From contig JALZVW010000070.1 of assembly GCA_023301745.1 (NCBI GenBank), positions 2,427-66,426 of the forward strand: DNA of 64,000 bases, in the 5' to 3' direction. The DNA is from Arenicella sp. Lineage in GTDB: Bacteria > Pseudomonadota > Gammaproteobacteria > Arenicellales > Arenicellaceae. How positions within the stretch are numbered: the first letter of the stretch is position 1; every line of letters begins with the position of its first letter. Below are positions 2,137 to 54,860 of this stretch, in pieces. Below the pieces are notes generated by a model that had not been told where the DNA came from, did no database searches, and saw nothing but the letters and a program-made list of their open reading frames with translations. A program made the translations under genes and the position numbers.

Positions 2137-4854
2137 ATGAAGTCAATTTTAGAAAAATCCAGAAAAATTTCGTTCCTCTCTCTTGCCCTAGCAATATCAA
2201 GCACCGGTGTCAGCATTCCTGTAAATGCTGAGATTCCCGTATTCGCCACTCAGATCAACGCTCAAAACGCGCATGCACTTATCAGTAATGGCCCCGATGC
2301 GATTGGCGGCATTGGAGATTGGTTCTTCACTAACGGTACTCTGTGCGGCATTGTCTCAGATGTCGACCATGAAGGGCAATTTTCAACCAAGGGCGGTTCG
2401 CTAGTTGACCTAGGTTTTTGTGGCCGAGCAGATGACCATTTCACGGCCACCCATGATTTATTACAAGGCAGTCGAAGACGGCCTCTCGACGCCAACAAAG
2501 TGAGCATCGAGCACAACGAGAAGTCTGCAACTGTTGTTGTTCAAGGAGCACGCGATGGCACAAAAATCACAAGCCGTTATACCTTAGGCTCCGACCAGCC
2601 CAGCCAAGTACACATCACCAAGAAGTTGTCTCAAACCGATGGCGAGAGTTTTAATTTTTTCTCGACACTGAACTTTAACTACCATTCCTTAGAGGCCTTT
2701 GTACTTAATAGCGAACAGCTTAATCTCAGTAACGGCTTTAAGGCTGAAGATTTTGTTTCTCGTGGCGTAAGTGCCATGAACGTCGCTGCACGCGACGCCG
2801 ACACCATAATCACCATGAGCCCTCCTACCGCAGAAGTGGGCATATCCTACGGTTGGCACTTAAAGTCGGCCGAGCGCGTTGAGGCCAATCACCGCGTTGA
2901 CCTGCCGCGTTTCATGCTGGCCGATGATTCATCCAATGCCATGATTATCTTGGCAGATACTTTTTACATCGGTGATGGAAGCCACGTAGGCTGGGTACAG
3001 TTGCCACAATTCCCCTTATTGTCTCTTGATGATGACTCCTCGATTGAAACGCATGAAATCATTTATGTTGGAAAGCGTGGAGATGTCGCATCAATAACCG
3101 ATCAACTCTTTGCTGACGCGCCGCTGGTTAAAGGAACCGTAAACGAAACTAATTCAGCGGTCCACGTATCATCGCAAGAAGGTATTCCGTTCACCCATGT
3201 TAGGCCCGACAACAACGGGAGCTTTTCTTTTCGCGCACCAAAAGGTCGGTATTCTTTGAATGTTCAAGGGACTGCCGAACGTATGGTCGAACGCCAATTA
3301 GAGGTCGACCAAACGCAAGTCACCTTAGAGCCCCTCGCTCTACCCAAGCCATCAAGCATAGAGCTACCTCAAGGCCACGCAATGCGATTACTCTTTGTCG
3401 GTATCAACGGAACCAAAAGCCCCGATTTCGCCAACATGCTTACCGGCTTCTCTGTTCAAGAAGACGATGGCATCCATTTTAGAGACCCTGTATCGAACGT
3501 GTTTCTAGCGGGTGTAGAAAGCGATGTTAAGCGCCTAGAGATTGGTCCTGGTGACTATCAAGTCTATGCGACCAAAGGGCCCGAATACTCGCTTGAGAAG
3601 ACAATCATTAAGGTAGCGCCACAAACCGACCTAGTTTTAAACATCGACATACCAACACAGGTGGTTAAGAGCCCAAATTATATCGCCAGTGATTTGCACG
3701 TTCATTCTGGCATTAGCTTTGACAACGCCTTTTCAGAAACCGAACGGGTGAGAACCTTTGTTGCGGAACATGGCGAGGTCATGGTCTCCAGCGAGCACGA
3801 TGTGCCAGTGGATTTTGCAGCCAGAATTTCGGCGCTTGGCGTATCAACGAAAATCACATCGATCGCCGCAGCCGAAGTCACCAGCTTACTACCAACCGAA
3901 CAAAATCAATTTACCGGAGGCCATACTAATTTTTTTCCTTATACGCCCAACCCACATGCCTATCGTCGAGGCATGGTCAATCATGAGGACAAACGGTTAC
4001 GCGACATCATTGATGAGATTAAAGAGCAGCAAGGAGACGACATATTAGTACAACTCAATCACGCCAGGATGACACTCGCGCTAAGCGGAGAGCTGCCAAA
4101 CAATTGGAAAGAATTAGTAGATGATGGTCATTTTCTCGACCATATGGGGCCGGCAAATCACCCGTATAACCCCGGTGAGCCACTGCACTCGCACCCCAAC
4201 AATGCCTTAATAGAGCCGCATAAAAAGACCGGTACGCGAGATTTAGATATCGATCTCTTTGAAGTTATTAACCCAAGTGATGGGCAAAACAATGAGCGCA
4301 TCCAAGCGCTTCGCCTAGATTGGCTCTCATTCCTCAAACAGGGTGAGAAAATAGTTGCCACCGCAAATAGTGACTCTCATCACGCCAATGAACAGGTCGC
4401 GCTGCCGCGAACTATGGTCGCGATGAAGGACGACCGAGTAGAACACTTTAAGCAAAGCGAGTTTCTAGCATCGCTAAAGTCAGGTAACGCCTATGGCACG
4501 ACGGGGCCTATCCTTGCAATAAGCCTCTCTGATGTTAATATGGGTGACACTTTTACAGGGCAACGCGGCCAACTATCACTCAAAATAGTGTCCGCCGATT
4601 GGATTCCAGTCACCAATGCGAAAATCCAGATCAACGGAGAAACTGTTGATGAGTATGAGTTAAACAGCGGCACCGAACACACTCTATTAATACCGTTGTC
4701 GTTTGATAAAGACTCGTTTGTCACCGTTGAGGTAAGCGGTCCAGCAACACAAGATTACCAGCGGGTGTACCCGGGTTTAGAACCTTATGCTTTTTCAAAC
4801 CCTATTTATGTCGACTTCGACGGTAACGGTAAATGGCAGGCTCCGGGCCTATAG
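2137..4854 (+). CDS. Secreted multidomain protein with a C-terminal PHP-type (CehA/McbA-like) metallohydrolase domain
   Basis: Sec-type signal peptide (MKSILEKSRKISFLSLALAISSTGVSIPVNA). The C-terminal third carries PHP-like metal-ligand motifs 'SDLHVHSGISFD', 'VSSEHD', 'LNHAR' and 'ANSDSHH'. The central 'GSFSFRAPKGRYSLNVQG' resembles a carboxypeptidase-regulatory-like beta-sandwich. The N-terminal ~500 aa are not recognised. Confidence 0.55.
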   Translation: MKSILEKSRKISFLSLALAISSTGVSIPVNAEIPVFATQINAQNAHALISNGPDAIGGIGDWFFTNGTLCGIVSDVDHEGQFSTKGGSLVDLGFCGRADDHFTATHDLLQGSRRRPLDANKVSIEHNEKSATVVVQGARDGTKITSRYTLGSDQPSQVHITKKLSQTDGESFNFFSTLNFNYHSLEAFVLNSEQLNLSNGFKAEDFVSRGVSAMNVAARDADTIITMSPPTAEVGISYGWHLKSAERVEANHRVDLPRFMLADDSSNAMIILADTFYIGDGSHVGWVQLPQFPLLSLDDDSSIETHEIIYVGKRGDVASITDQLFADAPLVKGTVNETNSAVHVSSQEGIPFTHVRPDNNGSFSFRAPKGRYSLNVQGTAERMVERQLEVDQTQVTLEPLALPKPSSIELPQGHAMRLLFVGINGTKSPDFANMLTGFSVQEDDGIHFRDPVSNVFLAGVESDVKRLEIGPGDYQVYATKGPEYSLEKTIIKVAPQTDLVLNIDIPTQVVKSPNYIASDLHVHSGISFDNAFSETERVRTFVAEHGEVMVSSEHDVPVDFAARISALGVSTKITSIAAAEVTSLLPTEQNQFTGGHTNFFPYTPNPHAYRRGMVNHEDKRLRDIIDEIKEQQGDDILVQLNHARMTLALSGELPNNWKELVDDGHFLDHMGPANHPYNPGEPLHSHPNNALIEPHKKTGTRDLDIDLFEVINPSDGQNNERIQALRLDWLSFLKQGEKIVATANSDSHHANEQVALPRTMVAMKDDRVEHFKQSEFLASLKSGNAYGTTGPILAISLSDVNMGDTFTGQRGQLSLKIVSADWIPVTNAKIQINGETVDEYELNSGTEHTLLIPLSFDKDSFVTVEVSGPATQDYQRVYPGLEPYAFSNPIYVDFDGNGKWQAPGL

Positions 4855-45858: not shown

Positions 45859-46128
45859 TCACTCTGATCGGGCTTTATGCTTCAGCGGTGTGAATATAAT
45901 AACCAGCGACGCTAATACGAGAATAGGCACAATCACCAACGGACCAAAAAAATAATTGCTGAAAAAATAAGCTAACGATGTAAAGCCGATAACGGTAAGC
46001 AACGACCATAAAACATCATGCCTTAGCGCTTCGCCACAGCTCACGCACTTAAGGGTCAAGCCAAATAATTTCCTTACCCAACTCATCGCAGTATTGCCAC
46101 AGTTAGGGCATAGTAATATTTTCGTCAT
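45859..46128 (-). CDS. Small zinc-ribbon membrane protein (hypothetical)
   Basis: 'CPNCG...CVSCG' (CxxC-N20-CxxC) followed by two hydrophobic helices. ATG at 46128; a GTG at 46149 would overlap the upstream gene's stop. Confidence 0.45.
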   Translation of the reverse strand: MTKILLCPNCGNTAMSWVRKLFGLTLKCVSCGEALRHDVLWSLLTVIGFTSLAYFFSNYFFGPLVIVPILVLASLVIIFTPLKHKARSE

Positions 46129-46138
46129 ACCGAATACC

Positions 46139-46978
46139 TTATTGGTCACGGTCTAGCTGCCAGTTTGGCTGACGCTTTTCGATCAGCGCATTGACACCCT
46201 CTTGGTAATTAGGCTGCTTCATCATTGCTTTAAGTAACTCGCCAGCTTCCTGGTTCGACGTGCCCACGTCGCGATGCAAGTCAACATAGACTTGACGTTT
46301 TGACTGACGCAGCGACTCTGGCGCGTTTCTTGCGATCAAATCAAGCGCGTAAGCACGTACATCAGCCATTAAGCTCTCTTTGCTAGAGAGTTGGTGTACC
46401 AATCCGATTCGCTCAGCCTCTTGTGAAAGGAACTTACGACTCGAAATAAGTAATTCGGCGGCTCTAGAACCGCCGATAAGTCTTGGTAACAACCACGATA
46501 AACCACATTCAACCGGCAAATTTAGCGGGCCATGGGCGGCCGTAAATTTAACTCCACTAACCGCAAAGCGAATGTCTGTATAACAGGCCAACACAAACCC
46601 GACACCGGCCATTGGCCCATTTATCGCTGCAATCACCGGCTTCGATAATGCAAGGTGATAGGCATAGTCGTGCCTAAACTCGGCAAATTCGGTCGACCCG
46701 GGTGTAATTAAGTCAGGACCAGTCCCCGAATCATATTCTCCGGTCTCAGCAAAAACTTCTAGACCATCGACATCGGCACCAACGCAAAAGTAGTCATCAG
46801 CACCAGTAACAATAATCACACCCACGTCGGCATCGGTATCGGCTTTATGTAAAAGCGCACGGTACTCCGTGTGCATAATTCCCGTCCAGGCATTGGCTCG
46901 GTGCGGCCGGTTTAAGGTGATCGTCGCTATGCGGTCATTGACCTGATAAAGGGTTTCGTACAATTCAAGGTTGCTCAT
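46139..46978 (-). CDS. Enoyl-CoA hydratase/isomerase (crotonase) family protein
   Basis: 'ITLNRPHRANAW', 'VIIVTGADDYFCVGAD' and 'PVIAAINGPMAGVG' form the crotonase oxyanion-hole pattern. Confidence 0.85.
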   Translation of the reverse strand: MSNLELYETLYQVNDRIATITLNRPHRANAWTGIMHTEYRALLHKADTDADVGVIIVTGADDYFCVGADVDGLEVFAETGEYDSGTGPDLITPGSTEFAEFRHDYAYHLALSKPVIAAINGPMAGVGFVLACYTDIRFAVSGVKFTAAHGPLNLPVECGLSWLLPRLIGGSRAAELLISSRKFLSQEAERIGLVHQLSSKESLMADVRAYALDLIARNAPESLRQSKRQVYVDLHRDVGTSNQEAGELLKAMMKQPNYQEGVNALIEKRQPNWQLDRDQ

Positions 46979-47117: not shown

Positions 47118-47600
47118 TCAACCGGCATTAATCGCTGTCGCGACATCCACCACTGTTTCGCGCTTTAACTGTTCCATAGAAAACGTCGACGAGACGCCTG
47201 AGAGCCCCGAAACTCGCGTGATGAGCTCTTGATACACATTATCGTAATGCTCAAGATCACGAACCAATACTTTCAGCAGGTAATCCACATCACCAGTCAT
47301 ACGATGACATTCAATGATTTCAGAAATTTGTTCAATAGAGTCGGCAAACGATGTTAACCATTGCTGATTATGGGTATCGATACGAATGGAGACAAAAGCC
47401 GTTATGCCAAGGCCGATTGCTTTCGGGCTAACAATCGCCACTCGACGTTCGATAACACCCTGTTCTTCTAGCCGTTTAATTCGCCGCCAGCACGGATTGT
47501 TAGTTAAACCAACTTGGCCCGCAATATCTTGCACTGAAACGGTGGCATCTCGTTGCAAGATACCAAGAATATTACGATCAATATTATCTAATTCTATCAT
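47118..47600 (-). CDS. Lrp/AsnC-family transcriptional regulator
   Basis: 'LDNIDRNILGILQRDATVSVQDIAGQVGLTNNPCWRRIKRLEEQGVI' (HTH) plus a C-terminal RAM domain. Confidence 0.88.
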   Translation of the reverse strand: MIELDNIDRNILGILQRDATVSVQDIAGQVGLTNNPCWRRIKRLEEQGVIERRVAIVSPKAIGLGITAFVSIRIDTHNQQWLTSFADSIEQISEIIECHRMTGDVDYLLKVLVRDLEHYDNVYQELITRVSGLSGVSSTFSMEQLKRETVVDVATAINAG

Positions 47601-47788: not shown

Positions 47789-48052
47789 TCACTCAGGCTT
47801 TCGAGCGACCATTTGGCTATGGTCTCCCAATGAGGTATCCATACGATGCTCGACCATAGCCGCATGCAAGCCAACAACAACCTCACTGCCAGTTTTGACA
47901 CACATAAATGGAAATACAGCATGTAAGAAGCAAGCAATGCCGCCAAAGATCATGCGAACGCCAAACTTACTGGCGCTGACTAAGTGCTGAGCATAAGTCT
48001 CACCGACCAATGCAGGGTGATCTTGAAACAGCCTATCGAAAAAATTGTTCAT
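47789..48052 (-). CDS. DUF6356-like small membrane protein
   Basis: 'FDRLFQDHPALVGETYAQHLVSASKFGVRMIFGGIACFLHAVFP' resembles the DUF6356 family pattern as recalled. The overlapping 67-aa ORF (47743..47946) is discounted. Confidence 0.5.
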   Translation of the reverse strand: MNNFFDRLFQDHPALVGETYAQHLVSASKFGVRMIFGGIACFLHAVFPFMCVKTGSEVVVGLHAAMVEHRMDTSLGDHSQMVARKPE

Positions 48053-48252
48053 TTTTATCCTAATTCAGTGATTGTTGCCAACACAGCATCGCAATGGCCT
48101 ATGCATCAAATAAGTATTTAGTATACTTAGTGACACATTGCTCGGCATCCCAAAAAACGCTAGAAAAAAAACAAAAATTGGTATGAAAATGACAAAAAAA
48201 GACTATAAATAGATTTATATTTCAAGATACTAATATCTAGAAGAAAATAGAA

Positions 48253-48283
48253 AAAAGGCATTCAAATAGGAAATATGCCTTTT
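48253..48283 (-). terminator. Bidirectional-type hairpin terminator downstream of the 7TM-HTH / KAS III cassette
   Basis: AAAAGGCAT-N13-ATGCCTTTT, flanked by an A-run and a T-run, inside a very AT-rich spacer. Confidence 0.6.
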
Positions 48284-48491
48284 GGACTTTTCATCCTCAG
48301 GAAGCCACAATGCCCATCGGCGCGCCAATCTTCGGCAAAGCTTGTGCTTTTCCAGGCACGCATCACTACCATGATCGCGCGCTAGCGGGTTGGTCAACGG
48401 CTTGAGTCGTCAAGACCAAGCTGAATTAGAGACGCCCTAGCTCAATGAATAACATTCAAGGTAAAGATTCAGCTCATTTTTACAGAACACA

Positions 48492-49427
48492 TTAATCGCC
48501 TTGTCCGTGTCCTCTCATTTCCAAGCGATTGAAAATACCGTAAAGCGTACTTCGTTTAATACCAAGGTTATTGGCGGTTAACGACACATTATCGCCCGCT
48601 CGATCTAAGGCGCTTTGAATTAACATTCTTTCTATTTCGCTCTTGGTTTCAGGTAACTTGGTATCACCAACCACATGTGAACGATAAATAGACACCAGTT
48701 TCTTTTCAGCTTTCCGTTGCGCTGAGAACGGGAGCCCACCTTGAATATTAATTAGATTGTTATTTTTCTCTGTCAGGACAACCAGTAATAGAAAAAATGT
48801 GCTAGCAAAAGGAATTAAGATTGCGCCGGTATACTGGAAGTTCGCTTGCATCATGATCATGACGATCAGAGAAACAATAATGATCGGTGATAACGCGAAG
48901 CCTGCGTAAAAACACTTCAACTGAACATTTATATCAATGGTCGTGGCATAGCGCCTGACCAAAATATAAAAAATCGAGGCAAACCCTAAAAGCACTACGA
49001 GTTGGAACAAAAAGTAGTAGTCACCCTTGACCGCGGTAATCGCATAACCAATCGAGACTGCTCCAGCTATAATCAAATCTGTTTGGAAAGTCACTAAAGC
49101 CATTAACACCGCAACACTAAGTGCGACGGTGTTAAACATAATATGACTGCTTTGATTTGCAACTGACATTGCGAAAATACACATAAACGCGAGTGAAAAT
49201 AACAAGGCTACATAGTATGACCTTAGTAAATTTTCCGAAACTATGTTGTTGAACAATTCAGAAATCACTAAAAACTCAGACAAATTGTTTACAGCAAAAA
49301 AGATCAACAAACACAAAAATGTTTGTGATGCGTAGTCGGCCTTTTTAGTGAGAACGTTCTTTGCAAGAATATAAACCCATACCTTTGAAAGTAGAGCTAT
49401 CAGTGCTGGTAAAGCAAAAACAGACAT
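48492..49427 (-). CDS. Polytopic membrane protein (about 7-8 TM) with a C-terminal Fis/NtrC-type HTH (HTH_8); putative membrane-integral one-component regulator
   Basis: The first ~220 aa are almost entirely hydrophobic helices. The C-terminal 'EIERMLIQSALDRAGDNVSLTANNLGIKRSTLYGIFNRL' fits the Fis-type HTH pattern (compare NtrC in this window). No receiver, AAA+ or kinase motifs. Confidence 0.65.
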   Translation of the reverse strand: MSVFALPALIALLSKVWVYILAKNVLTKKADYASQTFLCLLIFFAVNNLSEFLVISELFNNIVSENLLRSYYVALLFSLAFMCIFAMSVANQSSHIMFNTVALSVAVLMALVTFQTDLIIAGAVSIGYAITAVKGDYYFLFQLVVLLGFASIFYILVRRYATTIDINVQLKCFYAGFALSPIIIVSLIVMIMMQANFQYTGAILIPFASTFFLLLVVLTEKNNNLINIQGGLPFSAQRKAEKKLVSIYRSHVVGDTKLPETKSEIERMLIQSALDRAGDNVSLTANNLGIKRSTLYGIFNRLEMRGHGQGD

Positions 49428-49448
49428 AATAAATCATCCCATATTTAA

Positions 49449-50492
49449 CTAAATTTGGTATCCAAACTCTCCGACAACGAGTCCTGAGCCAGAATGAATA
49501 CCTCCAATTTTATCCCCAGATCTTAATTTACCAGTATTGAGGAGCTTTTCAAAGTTAATCGGGAAGGTTGCTGAAGTAATATTAGCTAAGGTGTCATAGG
49601 TTTTAATCATATGTTCGTTATCAACGGTACTAAATGATTGGAATTTCTCGAATGGTCTCTTGCCCGTTTGGTGGCTCAACACCCAATCAAAACTATTCCA
49701 ACCAAGCATTAATAAGGTTTCGTCAATGATTTTACGGTGCATCCATATCGATGCTCCGACTATCGGCCCCATATTCATCTGACCATGGAATGTTCCGTCT
49801 GAGTTGACTCCGTAGTAACATTTGTCTACATGTGAGCTGTCTGTTTTAGTGTGAAAAAGCTTAAAACCTGTGTCTTCGTCAATGTCAGAAAGCCCTAAGA
49901 TTACAGCGCCACCGGCATCTCCTACGGTTAGAGCGCCAAGCGTTTTTTGTGCTGTTTCAGCATCGACACCCGCTTTAAGATATTCGACCGCGGCGAGTAA
50001 AATTCTTGAAGGAATTTCCCCAGTACAGATTAATGCATGCCTAACAGTGCCACTGTGTAAAAAGTGGTTTGCCGTCTCAATCGCATGCATAAACCCAAAA
50101 CACGCATTAGACATATCAAATACATGATTAGCCTTTAGATTAAGTCTCGCTTGTATTGTGTGAGCTGTTGCTGGTTCAGAATGATCTCGTTCGATACCGC
50201 AAAAAATCACCAAATCGATTAAGTCTGGGTTAATATTTGATTCATCAATCGCTTTTTTAGCGGCCGGAATCGCTAAGTCTGATGGTTGGAAATCGGCAGG
50301 TGATATCCGCCGCTCTTTGATTCCCATTGATTCGGACATCCAGTTAATTGGAATATCATATTGAATATCCGATTTTATTTCCGACATAATATCGTCGGAT
50401 TTTAGCGTCTGCTCCGGTAGGTATGAGCCAACAGATAAGATTTTAGTGTTGGCTATTTCAGTTTGAAAACGCATGCTTGTGTGGTAGTTCAT
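49449..50492 (-). CDS. FabH-like beta-ketoacyl synthase III family condensing enzyme (not in a fab cluster)
   Basis: The Cys-His-Asn triad contexts are present: 'DMSNACFGFMHAIE', 'WVLSHQTGKRPF' and 'LANITSATFP'. 347 aa, located 21 nt upstream of the 7TM-HTH gene. Confidence 0.8.
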   Translation of the reverse strand: MNYHTSMRFQTEIANTKILSVGSYLPEQTLKSDDIMSEIKSDIQYDIPINWMSESMGIKERRISPADFQPSDLAIPAAKKAIDESNINPDLIDLVIFCGIERDHSEPATAHTIQARLNLKANHVFDMSNACFGFMHAIETANHFLHSGTVRHALICTGEIPSRILLAAVEYLKAGVDAETAQKTLGALTVGDAGGAVILGLSDIDEDTGFKLFHTKTDSSHVDKCYYGVNSDGTFHGQMNMGPIVGASIWMHRKIIDETLLMLGWNSFDWVLSHQTGKRPFEKFQSFSTVDNEHMIKTYDTLANITSATFPINFEKLLNTGKLRSGDKIGGIHSGSGLVVGEFGYQI

Positions 50493-50523
50493 AGTAATTC
50501 TCGTTGTTAATATTAAAAATAAA

Positions 50524-50546
50524 CATGTTACCGATATGGCAACATG
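50524..50546. promoter_or_regulatory. Near-perfect 23-bp palindrome (candidate operator) upstream of the KAS III-like gene
   Basis: CATGTTACC-GATAT-GGCAACATG (8 of 9 arm positions complementary), 32-54 nt upstream of the ATG at 50492. On the minus strand it contains a -35-like TTGCCA. Confidence 0.4.
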
Positions 50547-50738
50547 CCCATTTTTTAATCATTCGAGATTTAATAGCTAGCCAAAAAGAGAAGAACTATG
50601 GGCTAAAAGTGATAGTTTGGGCCCTACTAAGGCCTAAACTGTGGAATATAAGCGCGGGCGCTTAGCCGCATTAACAAAATACAACTAAGCCGTCATAAGA
50701 AGCGGCCGCGATTGTCATGCTGCTACCCTACTTAGCCC

Positions 50739-53700
50739 CTACTTAGCTACGACGGTAACCTTGTGCCCGGCCACCCAGTGCTTATGTTCGTCGGTGTAGT
50801 AAAGATACGTGCGGCTTGCTGGGCCAGTGAATGAACCTGGCACGTTTGCGGTTAGGCTAATCGGGACCACGCGTTTCTCATTCGCGTTTAAAGCGCGCCA
50901 GTACAAAATCACTTCTCGGCCAACAACTTCGTAGCTGCTGATCCGGTCGGCACCCACCAGTTCTTTTAGCTGATCGTGGCGCACCTCTAGACCGGCCGGT
51001 ATGCCAATAATGGCCATGGGTGTTGGCGCAATGTTGCTGCCGACTGACACCGTCACCTGCATTTCTAGTGGTTCGCCTTCTACGATGTTGTTGTGCGAAA
51101 GCTCTGTTTCAAGTTGTATTTGCGCTTGGTCATTACTCACCGGGAGTGTCGTGTTGTAACTTACCTCTAGGGCAAATGGCATCTTGCTACCGTCACTCAT
51201 TTTGAGCGCCAGGGTGTGCTTGCCGGCCGTTAAGGCGGCGGTAAAATCAGGCAGTTCTATTGCACCTTTTGAGTCTGTGTCAAACGCTACGGGCGTGCCG
51301 AACGGCTTGCCATTAAGTAACAATTGAACCTTACCGGCGCGTTTTGGCTTTGCCCTTGCGGCGTCGTACGCGTTGATTGCTTTAAGGGCCAGTATGGTTG
51401 ACTGGGTAGAGCCAAAACGACCTGATTGGCTGCGCTCAAATAACCATTTCATTGAGGTTTCGACATTGGCGGCCCAACGGGTGTCGTCTCTAAGCCACGC
51501 CAGCAATGTCAAACTTGTGGTCTCAATTAGTAGGCTATCGCCACCTGAACGTGTGATCGAGGTTTCGGCATTGGCTACCGCGCCGATTTGATTGACCTTA
51601 TCTACTAACTTTTGACTGAGGACGGTGGCCGCCGCATTGTCATTGGCTAAGTAAAGGATGTTGGCGGCCAGTGCGATAACGTAGCTGTCTTTGCTTGTTA
51701 GTGCGCGCGCTTTGACGGCGGCGATTTCTTTTGCAAGGGTAGACACGGATTCTCCGCTTTCGAGCAAAGACCACACTATATAGGCATCGGTTGTCGGCTG
51801 TGGTGCGCCGCCGAAACTATCGAGCGCTTTGCTGTTGCGCTTGAAGCCGCCGTTACCATCGCGGCGTTCGAGTAACCAATCACGAGTACGCTTGATCATC
51901 GCGTGGTCAACAGACATGACCTTGGCCATATCAACAAACTCCATCAAACCGTAGGCGGTTAGCGCTTCATGTGCTGGGTTAGCGCCAAACCATTCATAGC
52001 CTTTGTCTTTAGACTCAAAACCAATAAGCTTTTTGTAGCCCTGATTCAGCAGTGTTTTGGCTTTGGCGATTTTGTCAGGGTCGATCCCTTGATGGCTACT
52101 AAAATATTGCTGCGCCATAACAAGCGGGTAATTGGTAGAACTGGTTTGTTCAAAACAACCTGAGGGCTGGCGTAGCAACGCGTTTAGAGCTTCTTCCATA
52201 TTTGCTAGCGGCGAAGGGTAAACCTTGGCGATGGCTTGAATACTGCCTCGTTCAATCGCATCGGGAATAATAATATCGGTACTGAAGCTGTTCTCTGGCC
52301 CGACTAAACCACCATGGTTAACGCTAAAAGGAAAACCATTAGCTTTAACCACTAAGGTGCGCGTGACTCGGTCGGCAAACGGCCCGGCGGCAGCACTCAA
52401 CACCAACGGAAATTGGCCTGGCTTGTCGGCGACGATGCGAACAACTTGTCTAATTCGCTCACCGGCTTTGAGCGCCGAGCTATCGGCTTGCTGAATGTTC
52501 AAGCCTTCGCCTTTGACTAACAGGTTTGCACTCTCTATATCTTGGTCTGACGAGTTAACCATTGCCACCGGCAACTCAACAAGATCACCAACGCTGACTT
52601 CAAGCGGCATTTTAGGTTCGATATAAAATGGCTCAATTGAACTAATCAAGGTGTCGCCCGAGCCGAGCGCGCCGTTACGGCCAAAGGCGTCGCCCATAAT
52701 CCGAAAGCTGGTGACACTATCTGATAGGCCAAATTTAATGCTGGCCTTACCATCGCGCGCGCTAGTGCGAATGCCCTTATGCCAATACAAGGTTTCGGCA
52801 AAGTCAATACGGTCGTTGGCTCTACGATTAGATCTAACTTTGTGAGCGTATTGGCGAATAATTATGGCTCGTTTTGCTTCAAACATTGGGGCTATCTTAC
52901 CGAGCGGATTGACTCGGTTTGCTTGCAATACAAATTCTTGATCAGCTATATCGGCACCGAGCACTGGGGCTTCATCAGCGACTAACTCAATTGGCTTATC
53001 CAATTCAGCCTCGACGGCGGGTTCGGGCACAGGTGCCGGCTCGACCAGCACTTGGTTCTTAAATAATCGTCGATTGCGAACCCCAGCGACAGCGATCTCT
53101 TCGATTGCGAGGTTCTGGCCACGACGATAGTCATTAAACTTAGGCAGGCTTCGCTCGGCTAAGGCTCTCATCGCGGCTTCTAAATTCTTGCCTTTAAGGC
53201 TTGAGTAGTCGACCAATATAAAACGCCGCCACCCTTGAGTGCCTAGCAATAGGTCGACGGCCTTAGGGGCTTTTTCGTTTTCAACATCTAGATACACATG
53301 GGCATCGGCGAGGTCGTTCACTTCATTTTCTAGGTACACCATGACCGGCAGCCGTGGTGCATGTTCGCGCTTTTCAATAATTTCTAATACGGCATCATCG
53401 GTTACGGTTAGACCGACAACCGCTTCAACCGGCTTGCCGTTTTCGTCGGTGGTTAGAATATCAACCGACACCTCACTGCCCGGCACAACTTGCTGATTAG
53501 AAACAGAGAACGACACATTAACTGCGAATTTGGGTTGCCGATAAACCAAACGTTCGGCCAATGGCACACCGTCAGCTGACCAAGCGGTAACGATTAAAAC
53601 ACCTTCGGCATCTTTTGCATCGAGCTCAATAGCGTCTGAGTCAACACGTATTTTAGTAGACATCGTTTTCGTATCGAGCAACTGATCTCGCTTATACAGC

Positions 53701-54860
53701 GTAACCTTTGCTGGGCCATTTTCGCCAAGCGAAGACAGCTGAATCGAGATCGCGTCGTCGTAGGCGTACACCGCTTGGGCGCTGCGTACGACCGTGCCAC
53801 TGCGTTTAACCTCAGGCAACCGAAATTGACGATCAATGCCCGATGGCGCATCTAAGACTAAAACATAACGGGTATCAGCCGCAGGCGTAAACGAAAAGTC
53901 ACCGCGGCCTTCATGAACGGTTGAAAGTGTCGCTACCGAGGGCCCTGTTATGGCGCCGCCACTGTGTTTAAAAACACGCCCTTGAATATCAGCGGGTTTG
54001 CCATCAGGCCGATTCGCTTGAAGGTAAACTCGACTCGCGAGACCGGCAACTAAATCACCACCCTCGGGATAAAAACTTATGCTCATGGTCTGTAAAATAA
54101 TCGGCAGGGTTTTGCTTGCTGTTTCGACCACGCCACCGTCTTCTATTACAAAGGCGATGCTTCCGTCACCAATTTCTATGGTTTTCGGCAAATTGAACTT
54201 AGCCGATAAAACGCCGTTATCAGCCAAACGATAGCCAGATTTTTTAAACACTTGCTCACCGTCAACGCGAGCAATCACGGTGACCTTAGCGCCCTCGGGT
54301 TTGCCGCCCTCGGCACGGCTAATCTTAATATTTGCCTGAACTTCATCACCAGGCCCGTAACCTTCACGAGCAAATTCGATCTGGGTTTTCAAACGGGGCG
54401 CTCGGTACGCGCGAATGTCAAAGCTGCGCTCGGTTTGCGGCACCCCAATCGAAGGGCTTGATACCAATGCGGTATAACGCCCGCCCGGCGTACCCGCGGG
54501 AATCAACCATTTGGTACCCGCTGTGCTGTCATCACCCCTCGCGTGAGTACTAAATACGATGTCGCCCTTCGGGCCTTTGATCTGCACATTGATGTCCGTC
54601 ACACCGTTCGCCAACGGTGTGTTGTCGGCAGCATTCAAGATCGTAGCGCGTAAATAAACCGATTCATTTTCTCGATACACGGGCTTATCGACACTCGCAT
54701 AGACTAAATAGCGCGCTTCACCGCCTAATTGCTCAGCGGTAACAATAGACCTAGCATTAAGCTTCACCGGCTTATCGCCATCAGAGCTAAACGCTGAGCC
54801 AAAAGACAAAACCACTAATAATAAGACTAAGAAAACCACACACTTATTTAATGCCAACAT
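50739..54860 (-). CDS. Alpha-2-macroglobulin-family protein with a thioester motif (secreted, non-lipoprotein)
   Basis: Sec signal peptide (…LSFGSAFS). MG-domain-like 'VDKPVYRENESVYLRATIL'. Thioester motif 'SGCFEQT' (CFEQ at nt 52146-52157, Cys around residue 902). An alpha/alpha-toroid TED-like region follows. The C-terminal receptor-binding-like domain contains 'ISSYEVVGREVILYW'. Confidence 0.88.
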   Translation of the reverse strand: MLALNKCVVFLVLLLVVLSFGSAFSSDGDKPVKLNARSIVTAEQLGGEARYLVYASVDKPVYRENESVYLRATILNAADNTPLANGVTDINVQIKGPKGDIVFSTHARGDDSTAGTKWLIPAGTPGGRYTALVSSPSIGVPQTERSFDIRAYRAPRLKTQIEFAREGYGPGDEVQANIKISRAEGGKPEGAKVTVIARVDGEQVFKKSGYRLADNGVLSAKFNLPKTIEIGDGSIAFVIEDGGVVETASKTLPIILQTMSISFYPEGGDLVAGLASRVYLQANRPDGKPADIQGRVFKHSGGAITGPSVATLSTVHEGRGDFSFTPAADTRYVLVLDAPSGIDRQFRLPEVKRSGTVVRSAQAVYAYDDAISIQLSSLGENGPAKVTLYKRDQLLDTKTMSTKIRVDSDAIELDAKDAEGVLIVTAWSADGVPLAERLVYRQPKFAVNVSFSVSNQQVVPGSEVSVDILTTDENGKPVEAVVGLTVTDDAVLEIIEKREHAPRLPVMVYLENEVNDLADAHVYLDVENEKAPKAVDLLLGTQGWRRFILVDYSSLKGKNLEAAMRALAERSLPKFNDYRRGQNLAIEEIAVAGVRNRRLFKNQVLVEPAPVPEPAVEAELDKPIELVADEAPVLGADIADQEFVLQANRVNPLGKIAPMFEAKRAIIIRQYAHKVRSNRRANDRIDFAETLYWHKGIRTSARDGKASIKFGLSDSVTSFRIMGDAFGRNGALGSGDTLISSIEPFYIEPKMPLEVSVGDLVELPVAMVNSSDQDIESANLLVKGEGLNIQQADSSALKAGERIRQVVRIVADKPGQFPLVLSAAAGPFADRVTRTLVVKANGFPFSVNHGGLVGPENSFSTDIIIPDAIERGSIQAIAKVYPSPLANMEEALNALLRQPSGCFEQTSSTNYPLVMAQQYFSSHQGIDPDKIAKAKTLLNQGYKKLIGFESKDKGYEWFGANPAHEALTAYGLMEFVDMAKVMSVDHAMIKRTRDWLLERRDGNGGFKRNSKALDSFGGAPQPTTDAYIVWSLLESGESVSTLAKEIAAVKARALTSKDSYVIALAANILYLANDNAAATVLSQKLVDKVNQIGAVANAETSITRSGGDSLLIETTSLTLLAWLRDDTRWAANVETSMKWLFERSQSGRFGSTQSTILALKAINAYDAARAKPKRAGKVQLLLNGKPFGTPVAFDTDSKGAIELPDFTAALTAGKHTLALKMSDGSKMPFALEVSYNTTLPVSNDQAQIQLETELSHNNIVEGEPLEMQVTVSVGSNIAPTPMAIIGIPAGLEVRHDQLKELVGADRISSYEVVGREVILYWRALNANEKRVVPISLTANVPGSFTGPASRTYLYYTDEHKHWVAGHKVTVVAK

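Follow-up and report, generated by a model that had tools for sequence, protein, structure and literature searches.

A conserved and duplicated gene pair in Arenicella for an OleA/PpyS-type condensing enzyme and a membrane regulator with seven helices: a possible lipid-signal synthase and its receptor

Background

Why should the gene for a lipid-condensing enzyme lie next to that for a membrane protein that carries a DNA-binding domain? The question is raised by two adjacent minus-strand genes in a 64,000-nucleotide stretch of DNA from Arenicella sp. (contig JALZVW010000070.1; the whole stretch is called the window below). The first encodes a condensing enzyme, and the second a protein with seven predicted transmembrane (7TM) helices and a carboxy-terminal helix-turn-helix (HTH) domain. 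An earlier reading of the window, referred to as the original prediction, had proposed that the two genes form a lipid-derived signal synthase/receptor module. Our analysis finds that the pair is a conserved, autonomous and paralogously expanded module, with the gene for an OleA/PpyS-type enzyme in first place and that for a 7TM one-component regulator in second. The reading we favour, with a probability of roughly 0.45, is that the enzyme is a lipid ketone or pyrone synthase and that its partner is an in-membrane one-component receptor and transcription factor for the product.

Results and discussion

The condensing enzyme resembles OleA

The enzyme, which has more than 560 homologues, matches the Pfam domains ACP_syn_III (5.9e-13) and ACP_syn_III_C (1.5e-10). 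The complete Cys-His-Asn triad noted in the original prediction is present, with Cys131 in the context NACFGF, His274 in SHQTG and Asn304 in ANITSA; neither these three residues nor Glu106 vary among the 57 family members that were collected. Homologues are annotated in public databases as 3-oxoacyl-acyl carrier protein (ACP) synthase III, and in a single-sequence search of PDB sequences the FabHs and OleA of Xanthomonas campestris score about equally (best FabH 106 bits), with PqsD (3H76) far lower at 60 bits. Domains, triad, scores and annotation would all suit an alternative FabH isozyme that takes unusual acyl-coenzyme A (CoA) primers into decarboxylative condensation with malonyl-ACP, the 7TM-HTH protein then being a membrane-fluidity or lipid-composition homeostat. 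We regard such an isozyme as improbable, since the enzyme falls far under the cut-offs of the FabH models in NCBIfam (140.8 bits versus 292.1 for TIGR00747 and 160 versus 249 for NF006829), its gene does not lie in a fab cluster of the plsX-fabHDG-acpP type, and the two to four paralogues found per genome would be unusual for FabH. The earlier view that this is unlikely to be the housekeeping FabH is thus borne out. In fact the enzyme is under every curated cut-off in NCBIfam, including that of the closest model, PRK09258 (176.5 bits versus 285), and those of the StlD/DarB models (24.1 versus 450 for NF005293 and 20.6 versus 550 for NF053539).

A profile built from 12 family members is more discriminating. 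Searched against PDB, it places X. campestris OleA (3ROW) first, with 139.3 bits, and aligns Glu106 with OleA Glu117 and Cys131 with Cys143; His285 and Asn315 complete the OleA triad. The invariant family motif E-R-D-x-x-E-P-A-T-A-H is aligned with S-R-D-Y-L-E-P-S-T-A of OleA, so that the two share an (R)D-x-x-E-P-x-T-A motif. The position of Glu106 is Tyr in Haemophilus influenzae FabH, and FabHs carry Tyr or Phe at this place in the primer pocket; the corresponding trans-subunit pocket residue of Escherichia coli FabH is Phe87. A second feature in common with OleA is a helical stretch that lies between the TGE and GDAGG motifs: no gaps are needed to align it with OleA, whereas the alignment with FabH, which lacks this insert, has gaps there. 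The predicted fold points the same way. With the AlphaFold model of the enzyme (predicted local distance difference test score, pLDDT, 77.9; predicted template modelling score, pTM, 0.83) as the Foldseek query, the top 16 matches are all OleA structures, at template modelling scores of 0.86-0.87, whereas FabHs and PqsD reach 0.78-0.79 (PqsD 0.79). The enzyme thus shares the ACP_syn_III fold and catalytic triad with FabH, PqsD and DarB/StlD, but differs from each of them in these scores and, in the case of FabH, also in Glu106 and the insert. Glu106, the insert and the better fold match to OleA also speak against an alternative FabH isozyme. The KAS III (beta-ketoacyl-ACP synthase III) label of the original prediction stands as far as domains and triad are concerned; by profile, by Glu106 and by modelled fold the enzyme lies nearer to OleA, and appears better described as an OleA/PpyS-like head-to-head condenser than as a FabH-type KAS III.

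In OleA, Glu117 contributed by the partner subunit is the base for a non-decarboxylative, head-to-head Claisen condensation (PMC7064751). The head-to-head reaction by which PpyS produces a quorum-sensing pyrone requires the equivalent residue, E105 (PMC4578411). The correspondence of Glu106 with PpyS E105, and hence the PpyS/PyrS comparison, is drawn through OleA E117 rather than from a direct PpyS alignment. PpyS, too, is a stand-alone ketosynthase related to OleA, and the hydrophobic signal that it makes has a transcription factor of its own as receptor (PMC4578411). There is a difference in the partner: the photopyrone receptor of Photorhabdus, PluR, is of LuxR type, while here it is a 7TM protein with an HTH_8 domain. 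The window enzyme also differs from OleA in being paired with a 7TM-HTH gene, in its multiple copies per genome and in having no oleB, oleC or oleD nearby; no set of genes for an AMP-ligase, an alpha-beta-hydrolase and OleD was found in the window or in the gene tables of nine related loci (L001-L009).

The partner is a seven-helix membrane protein with a carboxy-terminal HTH

The second protein contains the Pfam domain HTH_8 (3e-7; 30.5 bits versus a cut-off of 22), its NCBIfam matches are confined to the last ~50-80 residues, and neither Pfam nor NCBIfam finds a receiver, AAA+ or kinase domain in it. This agrees with the original description of a Fis-type HTH fused to a membrane part without any of these domains, and the carboxy-terminal segment does score as an HTH. 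The same description had counted about seven or eight helices; the protein is indeed polytopic, and its AlphaFold model (17 homologues, pLDDT 77.7) has seven, not eight (Table 1). The juxtamembrane linker (aa 221-231) is modelled at low confidence. The loops on the periplasmic side are short, at 5, 5, 22 and 9 residues, and the distribution of Lys and Arg, both abundant in the tail, is modest evidence consistent with an amino terminus outside and a carboxy terminus inside the cell.

The family is large. An exhaustive profile search gives 1509 clusters (50% identity) at E <= 1e-3 and 263 at E <= 1e-30, and among the best 150 matches listed the relatives are almost all of ~300 aa and full length. 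The 16-19 matches of a word-indexed search had suggested a tiny family, which the profile search reveals as a sensitivity artefact. Public annotations call the homologues hypothetical protein or Regulatory Fis family protein. Within a diverse set of 43 members, HTH_8 is matched by 24 (best 7.8e-13), and other HTH families are matched at the same place in further members. Near-invariant across the diverse family are Lys15 in transmembrane helix 1 (TM1), Glu51 in TM2, Tyr71 and Tyr72 in TM3, Gly122 in the hairpin, Tyr138 and Pro206. To judge from their conservation, the polar and aromatic positions within the helix bundle are plausible ligand or switch residues.

HisKA_7TM (PF16927) is matched by 8 of the 43 members, with a best value of 2.6e-10, and there are weaker matches to 7TMR-DISM_7TM. 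One member, P0213, covers profile positions 7-217 of 224 of HisKA_7TM, but at 19.7 bits it is under the cut-off of 28.6. The membrane part of the window protein itself has no Pfam match at E <= 1; the kinship with HisKA_7TM, looked for at the suggestion of the original prediction, is therefore distant and seen at the level of the family only. A catalogue of such domains lists HisKA_7TM among the sensors of histidine kinases and gives no ligand for it (PMC5847659). The window protein resembles HisKA_7TM and 7TMR-DISM proteins in having a seven-helix amino-terminal sensor bundle in a signalling protein, and differs from the former in that its output is HTH_8 and not a set of histidine-kinase domains. 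With enhancer-binding proteins of the NtrC type it shares the carboxy-terminal HTH_8 but not the AAA+ sigma-54 activation domain or the receiver. A search for structural homologues of the 7TM domain with Foldseek against PDB returned only weak, generic matches resembling G-protein-coupled receptors (GPCRs; E >= 4.5e-3, template modelling score ~0.5), which we treat as a resemblance of topology and not as homology.

Could the membrane protein be something other than a transcription factor? It might serve as acceptor, exporter or scaffold for the lipid product of the enzyme, its carboxy-terminal helical domain making protein-protein contacts or being released by proteolysis for another role. Such a part would be compatible with a membrane domain that, in the window protein, matches no characterised family, with the low confidence of the linker and with a DNA binding that is predicted only. 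We consider it very improbable, because HTH_8 is above its cut-off in the window protein and present, or replaced by another HTH at the same place, in many of its relatives, because the membrane domain has its kin among sensor domains rather than transporters or acyltransferases, and because membrane-anchored transcription factors are common (PMC10269533).

Membrane-anchored one-component regulators are indeed a known class, mostly of single-pass proteins (PMC10269533). Full-text literature searches found no description of the enzyme/7TM-HTH pairing or of the 7TM-HTH family, in keeping with the original prediction, whose author knew of no described system with this pairing; the combination of a polytopic sensor with a Fis-type HTH, on the other hand, has one in Neisseria gonorrhoeae Rsp, in which the membrane receptor module of PilS is joined to the DNA-binding domain of PilR (PMC10269533). 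Like ToxR, CadC, BcrR and Rsp, the window protein unites one or more transmembrane segments with a DNA-binding domain in a single polypeptide, but ToxR, CadC and BcrR have theirs at the amino terminus, and no member of this class is known with a HisKA_7TM-like bundle or a condensing enzyme as partner. The PilR domain of Rsp we take to be Fis-type, and its PilS module polytopic.

The pair is conserved and has multiplied

A scan with an enzyme alignment, one genome per species, gave 51 loci, mostly in Arenicella, Arenicellaceae or unclassified gammaproteobacterial metagenome-assembled genomes (MAGs), with the enzyme at 42-65% identity. Hidden Markov model searches over all open reading frames (ORFs) of the collected loci then yielded 57 unique pairs of enzyme and 7TM-HTH genes, 53 co-directional and 4 convergent, with a median spacer of 22 nt. 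Four enzyme genes seem unpaired: in L028, L057 and L059 the partner is cut by the end of the sequence, and in L029 there is too little downstream DNA. Every enzyme gene with enough DNA downstream has a partner, and the pairing is near-obligate in this direction. In the gene tables of L001-L009 the two genes stand side by side amid differing, unrelated flanks. The supposition that they belong together thus gains support from their adjacency in other genomes. Several copies come from MAGs that bear the labels Paracoccaceae, Alteromonas macleodii, Polaribacter or Cryomorphaceae (P0004, P0077, L014, L056); as the distribution is otherwise tight and of Arenicella type, these labels look like binning errors rather than true hosts.

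Many MAGs contain two to four pairs per assembly, and Arenicella xantha (public genome GCA_003315245.1, with RefSeq proteins), which we take to be a cultured organism, has two paralogous pairs (L008, L009), with membrane proteins only 33-35% identical to that of the window. Two or three pairs are adjacent in L024, L039, L041 and L043. In another arrangement, two 7TM-HTH genes in tandem come after a single enzyme gene (L047, 3057-4975; L039, 1065-3383; L041, 1148-3467; L065, 106-1978). L039 and L041 also have a fragmented third enzyme gene (7156-7729 in L039), probably a pseudogene. Tandem receptors and enzyme fragment together indicate that the module duplicates and decays locally.

The two proteins have diverged together. 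Their pairwise distances correlate with Pearson r = 0.82, a value reached by none of 2000 Mantel permutations, and the receptor diverges faster than the enzyme (median identity 31% versus 50%). With 57 pairs and two to four of them per genome, adjacent genes of synthase and receptor type are inherited and duplicated as a unit.

The rule is not absolute. Of the most distant 7TM-HTH family members sampled, P0289 comes directly after an enzyme gene, with a gap of 1 nt (L063), and P0265 follows a carboxy-terminal fragment of the enzyme, but two further members, P0240 and P0141, depart from the pattern as discussed below; the contig of P0213 is too short to judge. At one orphan receptor locus (L061, 702-1631) the next gene downstream encodes a LuxR/GerE-type response regulator, and at another (L067, 4001-4978) a divergent gene for a flavin adenine dinucleotide-dependent oxidoreductase precedes. 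In L004 a gene for an IS200/IS605-type Y1 transposase (3182-3991) lies ~150 nt downstream of the pair, and the same gene is seen in L005-L007, all four being related metagenome contigs; together with the unrelated flanks elsewhere, it is a hint that the module changes its place.

DNA upstream of the enzyme gene

The DNA ahead of the window's enzyme gene contains a near-palindrome (Table 1), and at the orthologous position L001 and L003 have a perfect GTTGC-N6-GCAAC. The window element is a candidate operator for the HTH, or a hairpin in the 5' untranslated region (UTR). A second element, the conserved box of Table 1, takes the form (C/G)T(A/G)G(C/T)TATTAAATC at equal distance from the dyad in the window, L001 and L003, and possibly represents a promoter or a second binding site. 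Since HTH_8 is typical of sigma-54 activators, a sigma-54 promoter was considered for the GTTGC...GCAAC element; it was rejected, as GG-N10-GC is found in L001 only and not in the window or L003, and the protein is without AAA+. Further copies of the dyad in the window were also rejected as regulon markers, the sole match being the site itself, at chance level.

A sister clade with enzymes of 341 aa has a different but strongly conserved layout: box 1 GCAACTGTCTATTTTTCGTAAT, an extended -10-like TGCTAATAT and a dyad TGTCT-N6-AGACA just before the ribosome-binding site, in this order. The arms of this dyad change together (GTCG/CGAC, GTCC/GGAC); both sides are changed in 10 cells, a number reached in 0 of 500 shuffles, and all slid controls are lower. 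Judged by its symmetry, the dyad would fit an operator of a dimeric HTH and a 5'-UTR hairpin equally. The promoters of this clade (L009, 5880-6003, and 13 related loci) also have two copies of AAC(T/C)GTCTnWTTT, ~52-55 bp apart, which flank the -10-like element; only the downstream copy is a full palindrome. The two copies could be binding sites that lie on one side of the DNA helix.

A possible lipid-signal synthase and its receptor

How would such a pair work? From the sequence and fold of the enzyme we infer that an OleA/PpyS-type thiolase would load an acyl thioester on Cys131 and, with Glu106 of the partner subunit as the base, would condense this first acyl chain head-to-head and non-decarboxylatively with a second acyl thioester. 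Loss of CO2 would turn the resulting 2-alkyl-3-keto acid into a dialkyl ketone; with a 3-ketoacyl thioester as one of the substrates, the outcome would be cyclisation to an alpha-pyrone instead. Either product would be hydrophobic and partition into membranes, and the 7TM protein, with almost no periplasmic surface, may bind it within the helix bundle, where Lys15, Glu51 and Tyr71/72 are candidate contacts. A change induced by the ligand would pass via the juxtamembrane helices to a dimeric Fis-type HTH, which would autoregulate the pair by binding the dyad ahead of the enzyme gene, and would probably bind further targets, while the protein stays embedded in the membrane like ToxR, BcrR or Rsp. 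The several diverged pairs of a genome would then be parallel, separately tuned channels.

Head-to-head thiolases, transmembrane transcription regulators and gene pairs for a synthase and its receptor are all known already. Among the last of these, CqsA/CqsS of Vibrio (signal CAI-1) and LqsA/LqsS of Legionella (signal LAI-1) are encoded by adjacent genes for a synthase and a polytopic receptor, the signal is a hydrophobic alpha-hydroxyketone, and the receptor has a multi-helix membrane domain with almost no periplasmic part, as in the window pair. CqsA, unlike the window enzyme, is a pyridoxal phosphate-dependent acyl-CoA transferase and not a thiolase, and CqsS is a histidine kinase with six transmembrane helices that signals by phosphorelay, whereas the window receptor carries its DNA-binding domain itself.

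The paralogous pairs, their co-divergence at r = 0.82 and the upstream dyads all fit the synthase/receptor idea of the original prediction; that the product of the enzyme is the ligand of the receptor is, however, purely what we infer. Several observations weigh against the idea. The enzyme is only ~25% identical to OleA, the same as to FabH, and this identity, with no oleBCD nearby, means that it is not a bona fide member of the ole pathway; Glu106 is suggestive of head-to-head chemistry but does not prove it. P0240 and P0141 have no enzyme gene upstream, and such orphan 7TM-HTH genes, like the tandem receptors, show that a receptor can occur without a synthase. The window has an imperfect dyad, and the single copy of the core motif found there compares with 1.16 expected by chance. 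Clades with different dyads share a fairly conserved recognition helix in the HTH, so the dyads could be 5'-UTR hairpins rather than operators. Finally, co-divergence and tight adjacency are expected also of a regulator and a target gene that have no ligand relation.

This last point leads to the main rival account, in which the pair is a regulator and its target only. The 7TM-HTH protein would sense the state of the membrane or an exogenous hydrophobic compound, for which algal or sediment fatty acids and hydrocarbons are candidates, and would switch the adjacent OleA-like enzyme; the lipid made by the enzyme, a long-chain ketone or keto-acid, would serve the cell itself in its membranes or as a store and would be no signal. 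Adjacency, co-transcription and co-divergence are equally expected under this account, and orphan 7TM-HTH genes are natural to it. So are the known products of OleA, which are membrane hydrocarbons and not signals (PMC7064751), and the existence of HisKA_7TM domains without known ligand (PMC5847659). We nevertheless hold it to be the less likely of the two. OleBCD, which olefins require, are absent from all flanks examined, and a genome with several diverged pairs, whose sensors have changed more quickly than the enzymes, is hard to explain by one bulk-lipid function and typical of signal/receptor diversification. Moreover, a stand-alone head-to-head thiolase with this Glu has its closest functional counterpart in a signal synthase, PpyS. 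It is because of these multiple co-diversified pairs, the faster evolution of the receptor, the lack of oleBCD and the PpyS precedent that a lipid ketone or pyrone synthase with its own receptor is the favoured reading.

On a more tentative level, the pair may represent an undescribed class of chemical communication, with OleA-type lipid ketones or pyrones as autoinducers, an in-membrane seven-helix receptor that is itself the transcription factor, and several orthogonal channels that marine bacteria of the Arenicella type would run in parallel. Such a receptor might be called GPCR-like in topology, with no kinase, G-protein or second messenger. If the product is the receptor's ligand, a head-to-head thiolase and a DNA-binding 7TM receptor would make up a cell-cell or autocrine signalling system of new architecture. 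HisKA_7TM, an uncharacterised family of sensors, would thereby gain its first ligand class and its first output logic, and OleA-like enzymes would gain a stand-alone physiological role, in signalling, beyond the olefin and beta-lactone pathways. A compact two-gene membrane sensor and actuator, naturally diversified and possibly orthogonal, would also have potential use in synthetic biology. Even if the pair were a regulator and target only, it would still define a family of polytopic one-component regulators that is large and whose members each serve a lipid-condensing enzyme. The strong conservation of the module and the two pairs of A. xantha make it approachable by experiment, and an assay of OleA by hydrolysis of p-nitrophenyl esters has been described (PMC7064751).

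Layout and surroundings of the gene pair

When the ORFs and the gap were re-read, the two co-directional genes and the distance of 21 nt between them proved exact as first reported. To judge from the numbers of their homologues, both genes are real. The spacer has no terminator, and the two genes are probably co-transcribed. The hairpin terminator said to be shared by both was not recovered: the terminator scan is empty 3' of position 48492, where the sole inverted repeat has arms of 8 bp (48419-48426 / 48467-48474), a loop of 40 nt and no T tract, and where folding is no better than that of shuffled sequences (z = -0.33). A terminator-like hairpin lies at the other end, after the upstream gene, and on this ground the two-gene module probably has its own promoter in 50493-50738. 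No known RNA family or riboswitch was found in 47900-51000 (no Rfam match at E <= 1).

Table 1. Positions of the gene pair, of parts of its products and of nearby features in the window
Feature	Position	Strand	Description	Basis
OleA-like condensing enzyme gene	49449..50492	minus	347 aa	ORF list, Pfam
Glu106 codon	50175-50177	minus		
Cys131 codon	50100-50102	minus		
His274 codon	49671-49673	minus		
Asn304 codon	49581-49583	minus		
Intergenic spacer	49428-49448	minus	TTAAATATGGGATGATTTATT; exactly 21 nt	direct sequence reading
7TM-HTH regulator gene	48492..49427	minus	311 aa	ORF list, Pfam HTH_8, AlphaFold
Membrane domain, aa 1-221	48765..49427	minus	predicted helices 6-26, 32-59, 65-90, 96-115, 138-162, 166-194, 204-221	AlphaFold
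Beta-hairpin, aa 120-134			between TM4 and TM5; predicted periplasmic side	AlphaFold
Cytoplasmic tail, aa 222-301	48525..48764	minus	low-confidence linker, then four predicted helices that end in the Fis-type HTH	AlphaFold, Pfam
HTH_8 region, aa 264-296	48540-48638	minus		Pfam
Near-palindrome	50515..50555	minus	41 bp; ~45 nt upstream of enzyme ATG; 18-nt arms, 78% complementary	
Core of near-palindrome	50524-50546	minus	CATGTTGCC-ATATC-GGTAACATG; one G:T position	
Conserved upstream box	50567..50580	minus	CTAGCTATTAAATC; ~20 nt beyond the dyad; common to close orthologues	
Terminator-like GC hairpin	50653..50670	minus	just after the alpha-2-macroglobulin-like gene, which it sets apart from the two-gene module	terminator scan
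Alpha-2-macroglobulin-like gene	50739-54860	minus	1373 aa	
DUF6356 gene	47789-48052	minus	87 aa	
Lrp/AsnC regulator gene	47118-47600	minus		
Enoyl-CoA hydratase gene	46139-46978	minus		
CxxC ORF	45859-46149	minus	96 aa	

The neighbours of the pair examined in the window are unrelated housekeeping genes (alpha-2-macroglobulin-like, DUF6356, Lrp/AsnC and similar), and there is no second KAS III gene within the 64 kb. The upstream neighbour encodes a secreted alpha-2-macroglobulin-like protein with MG2, A2M and TED domains, a thioester-like GCFEQ motif and a signal-like amino-terminal segment. The gene for the small DUF6356 protein follows the module on the same strand after ~440 nt and is itself followed by that for the Lrp/AsnC regulator; neither is kept beside the pair in the other loci. 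The pair occupies the lowest-GC 2 kb of the window (48001-50500), at 0.401 versus a mean of 0.461 +/- 0.022 for 2-kb windows, which may reflect lateral movement or a lineage-specific composition. Further along the same strand lies a small ORF whose product has hydrophobic segments and two CxxC pairs, and which shares 11 nt with the 3' end of the enoyl-CoA hydratase gene; it may encode a small zinc-ribbon membrane protein that is translationally coupled to the hydratase.

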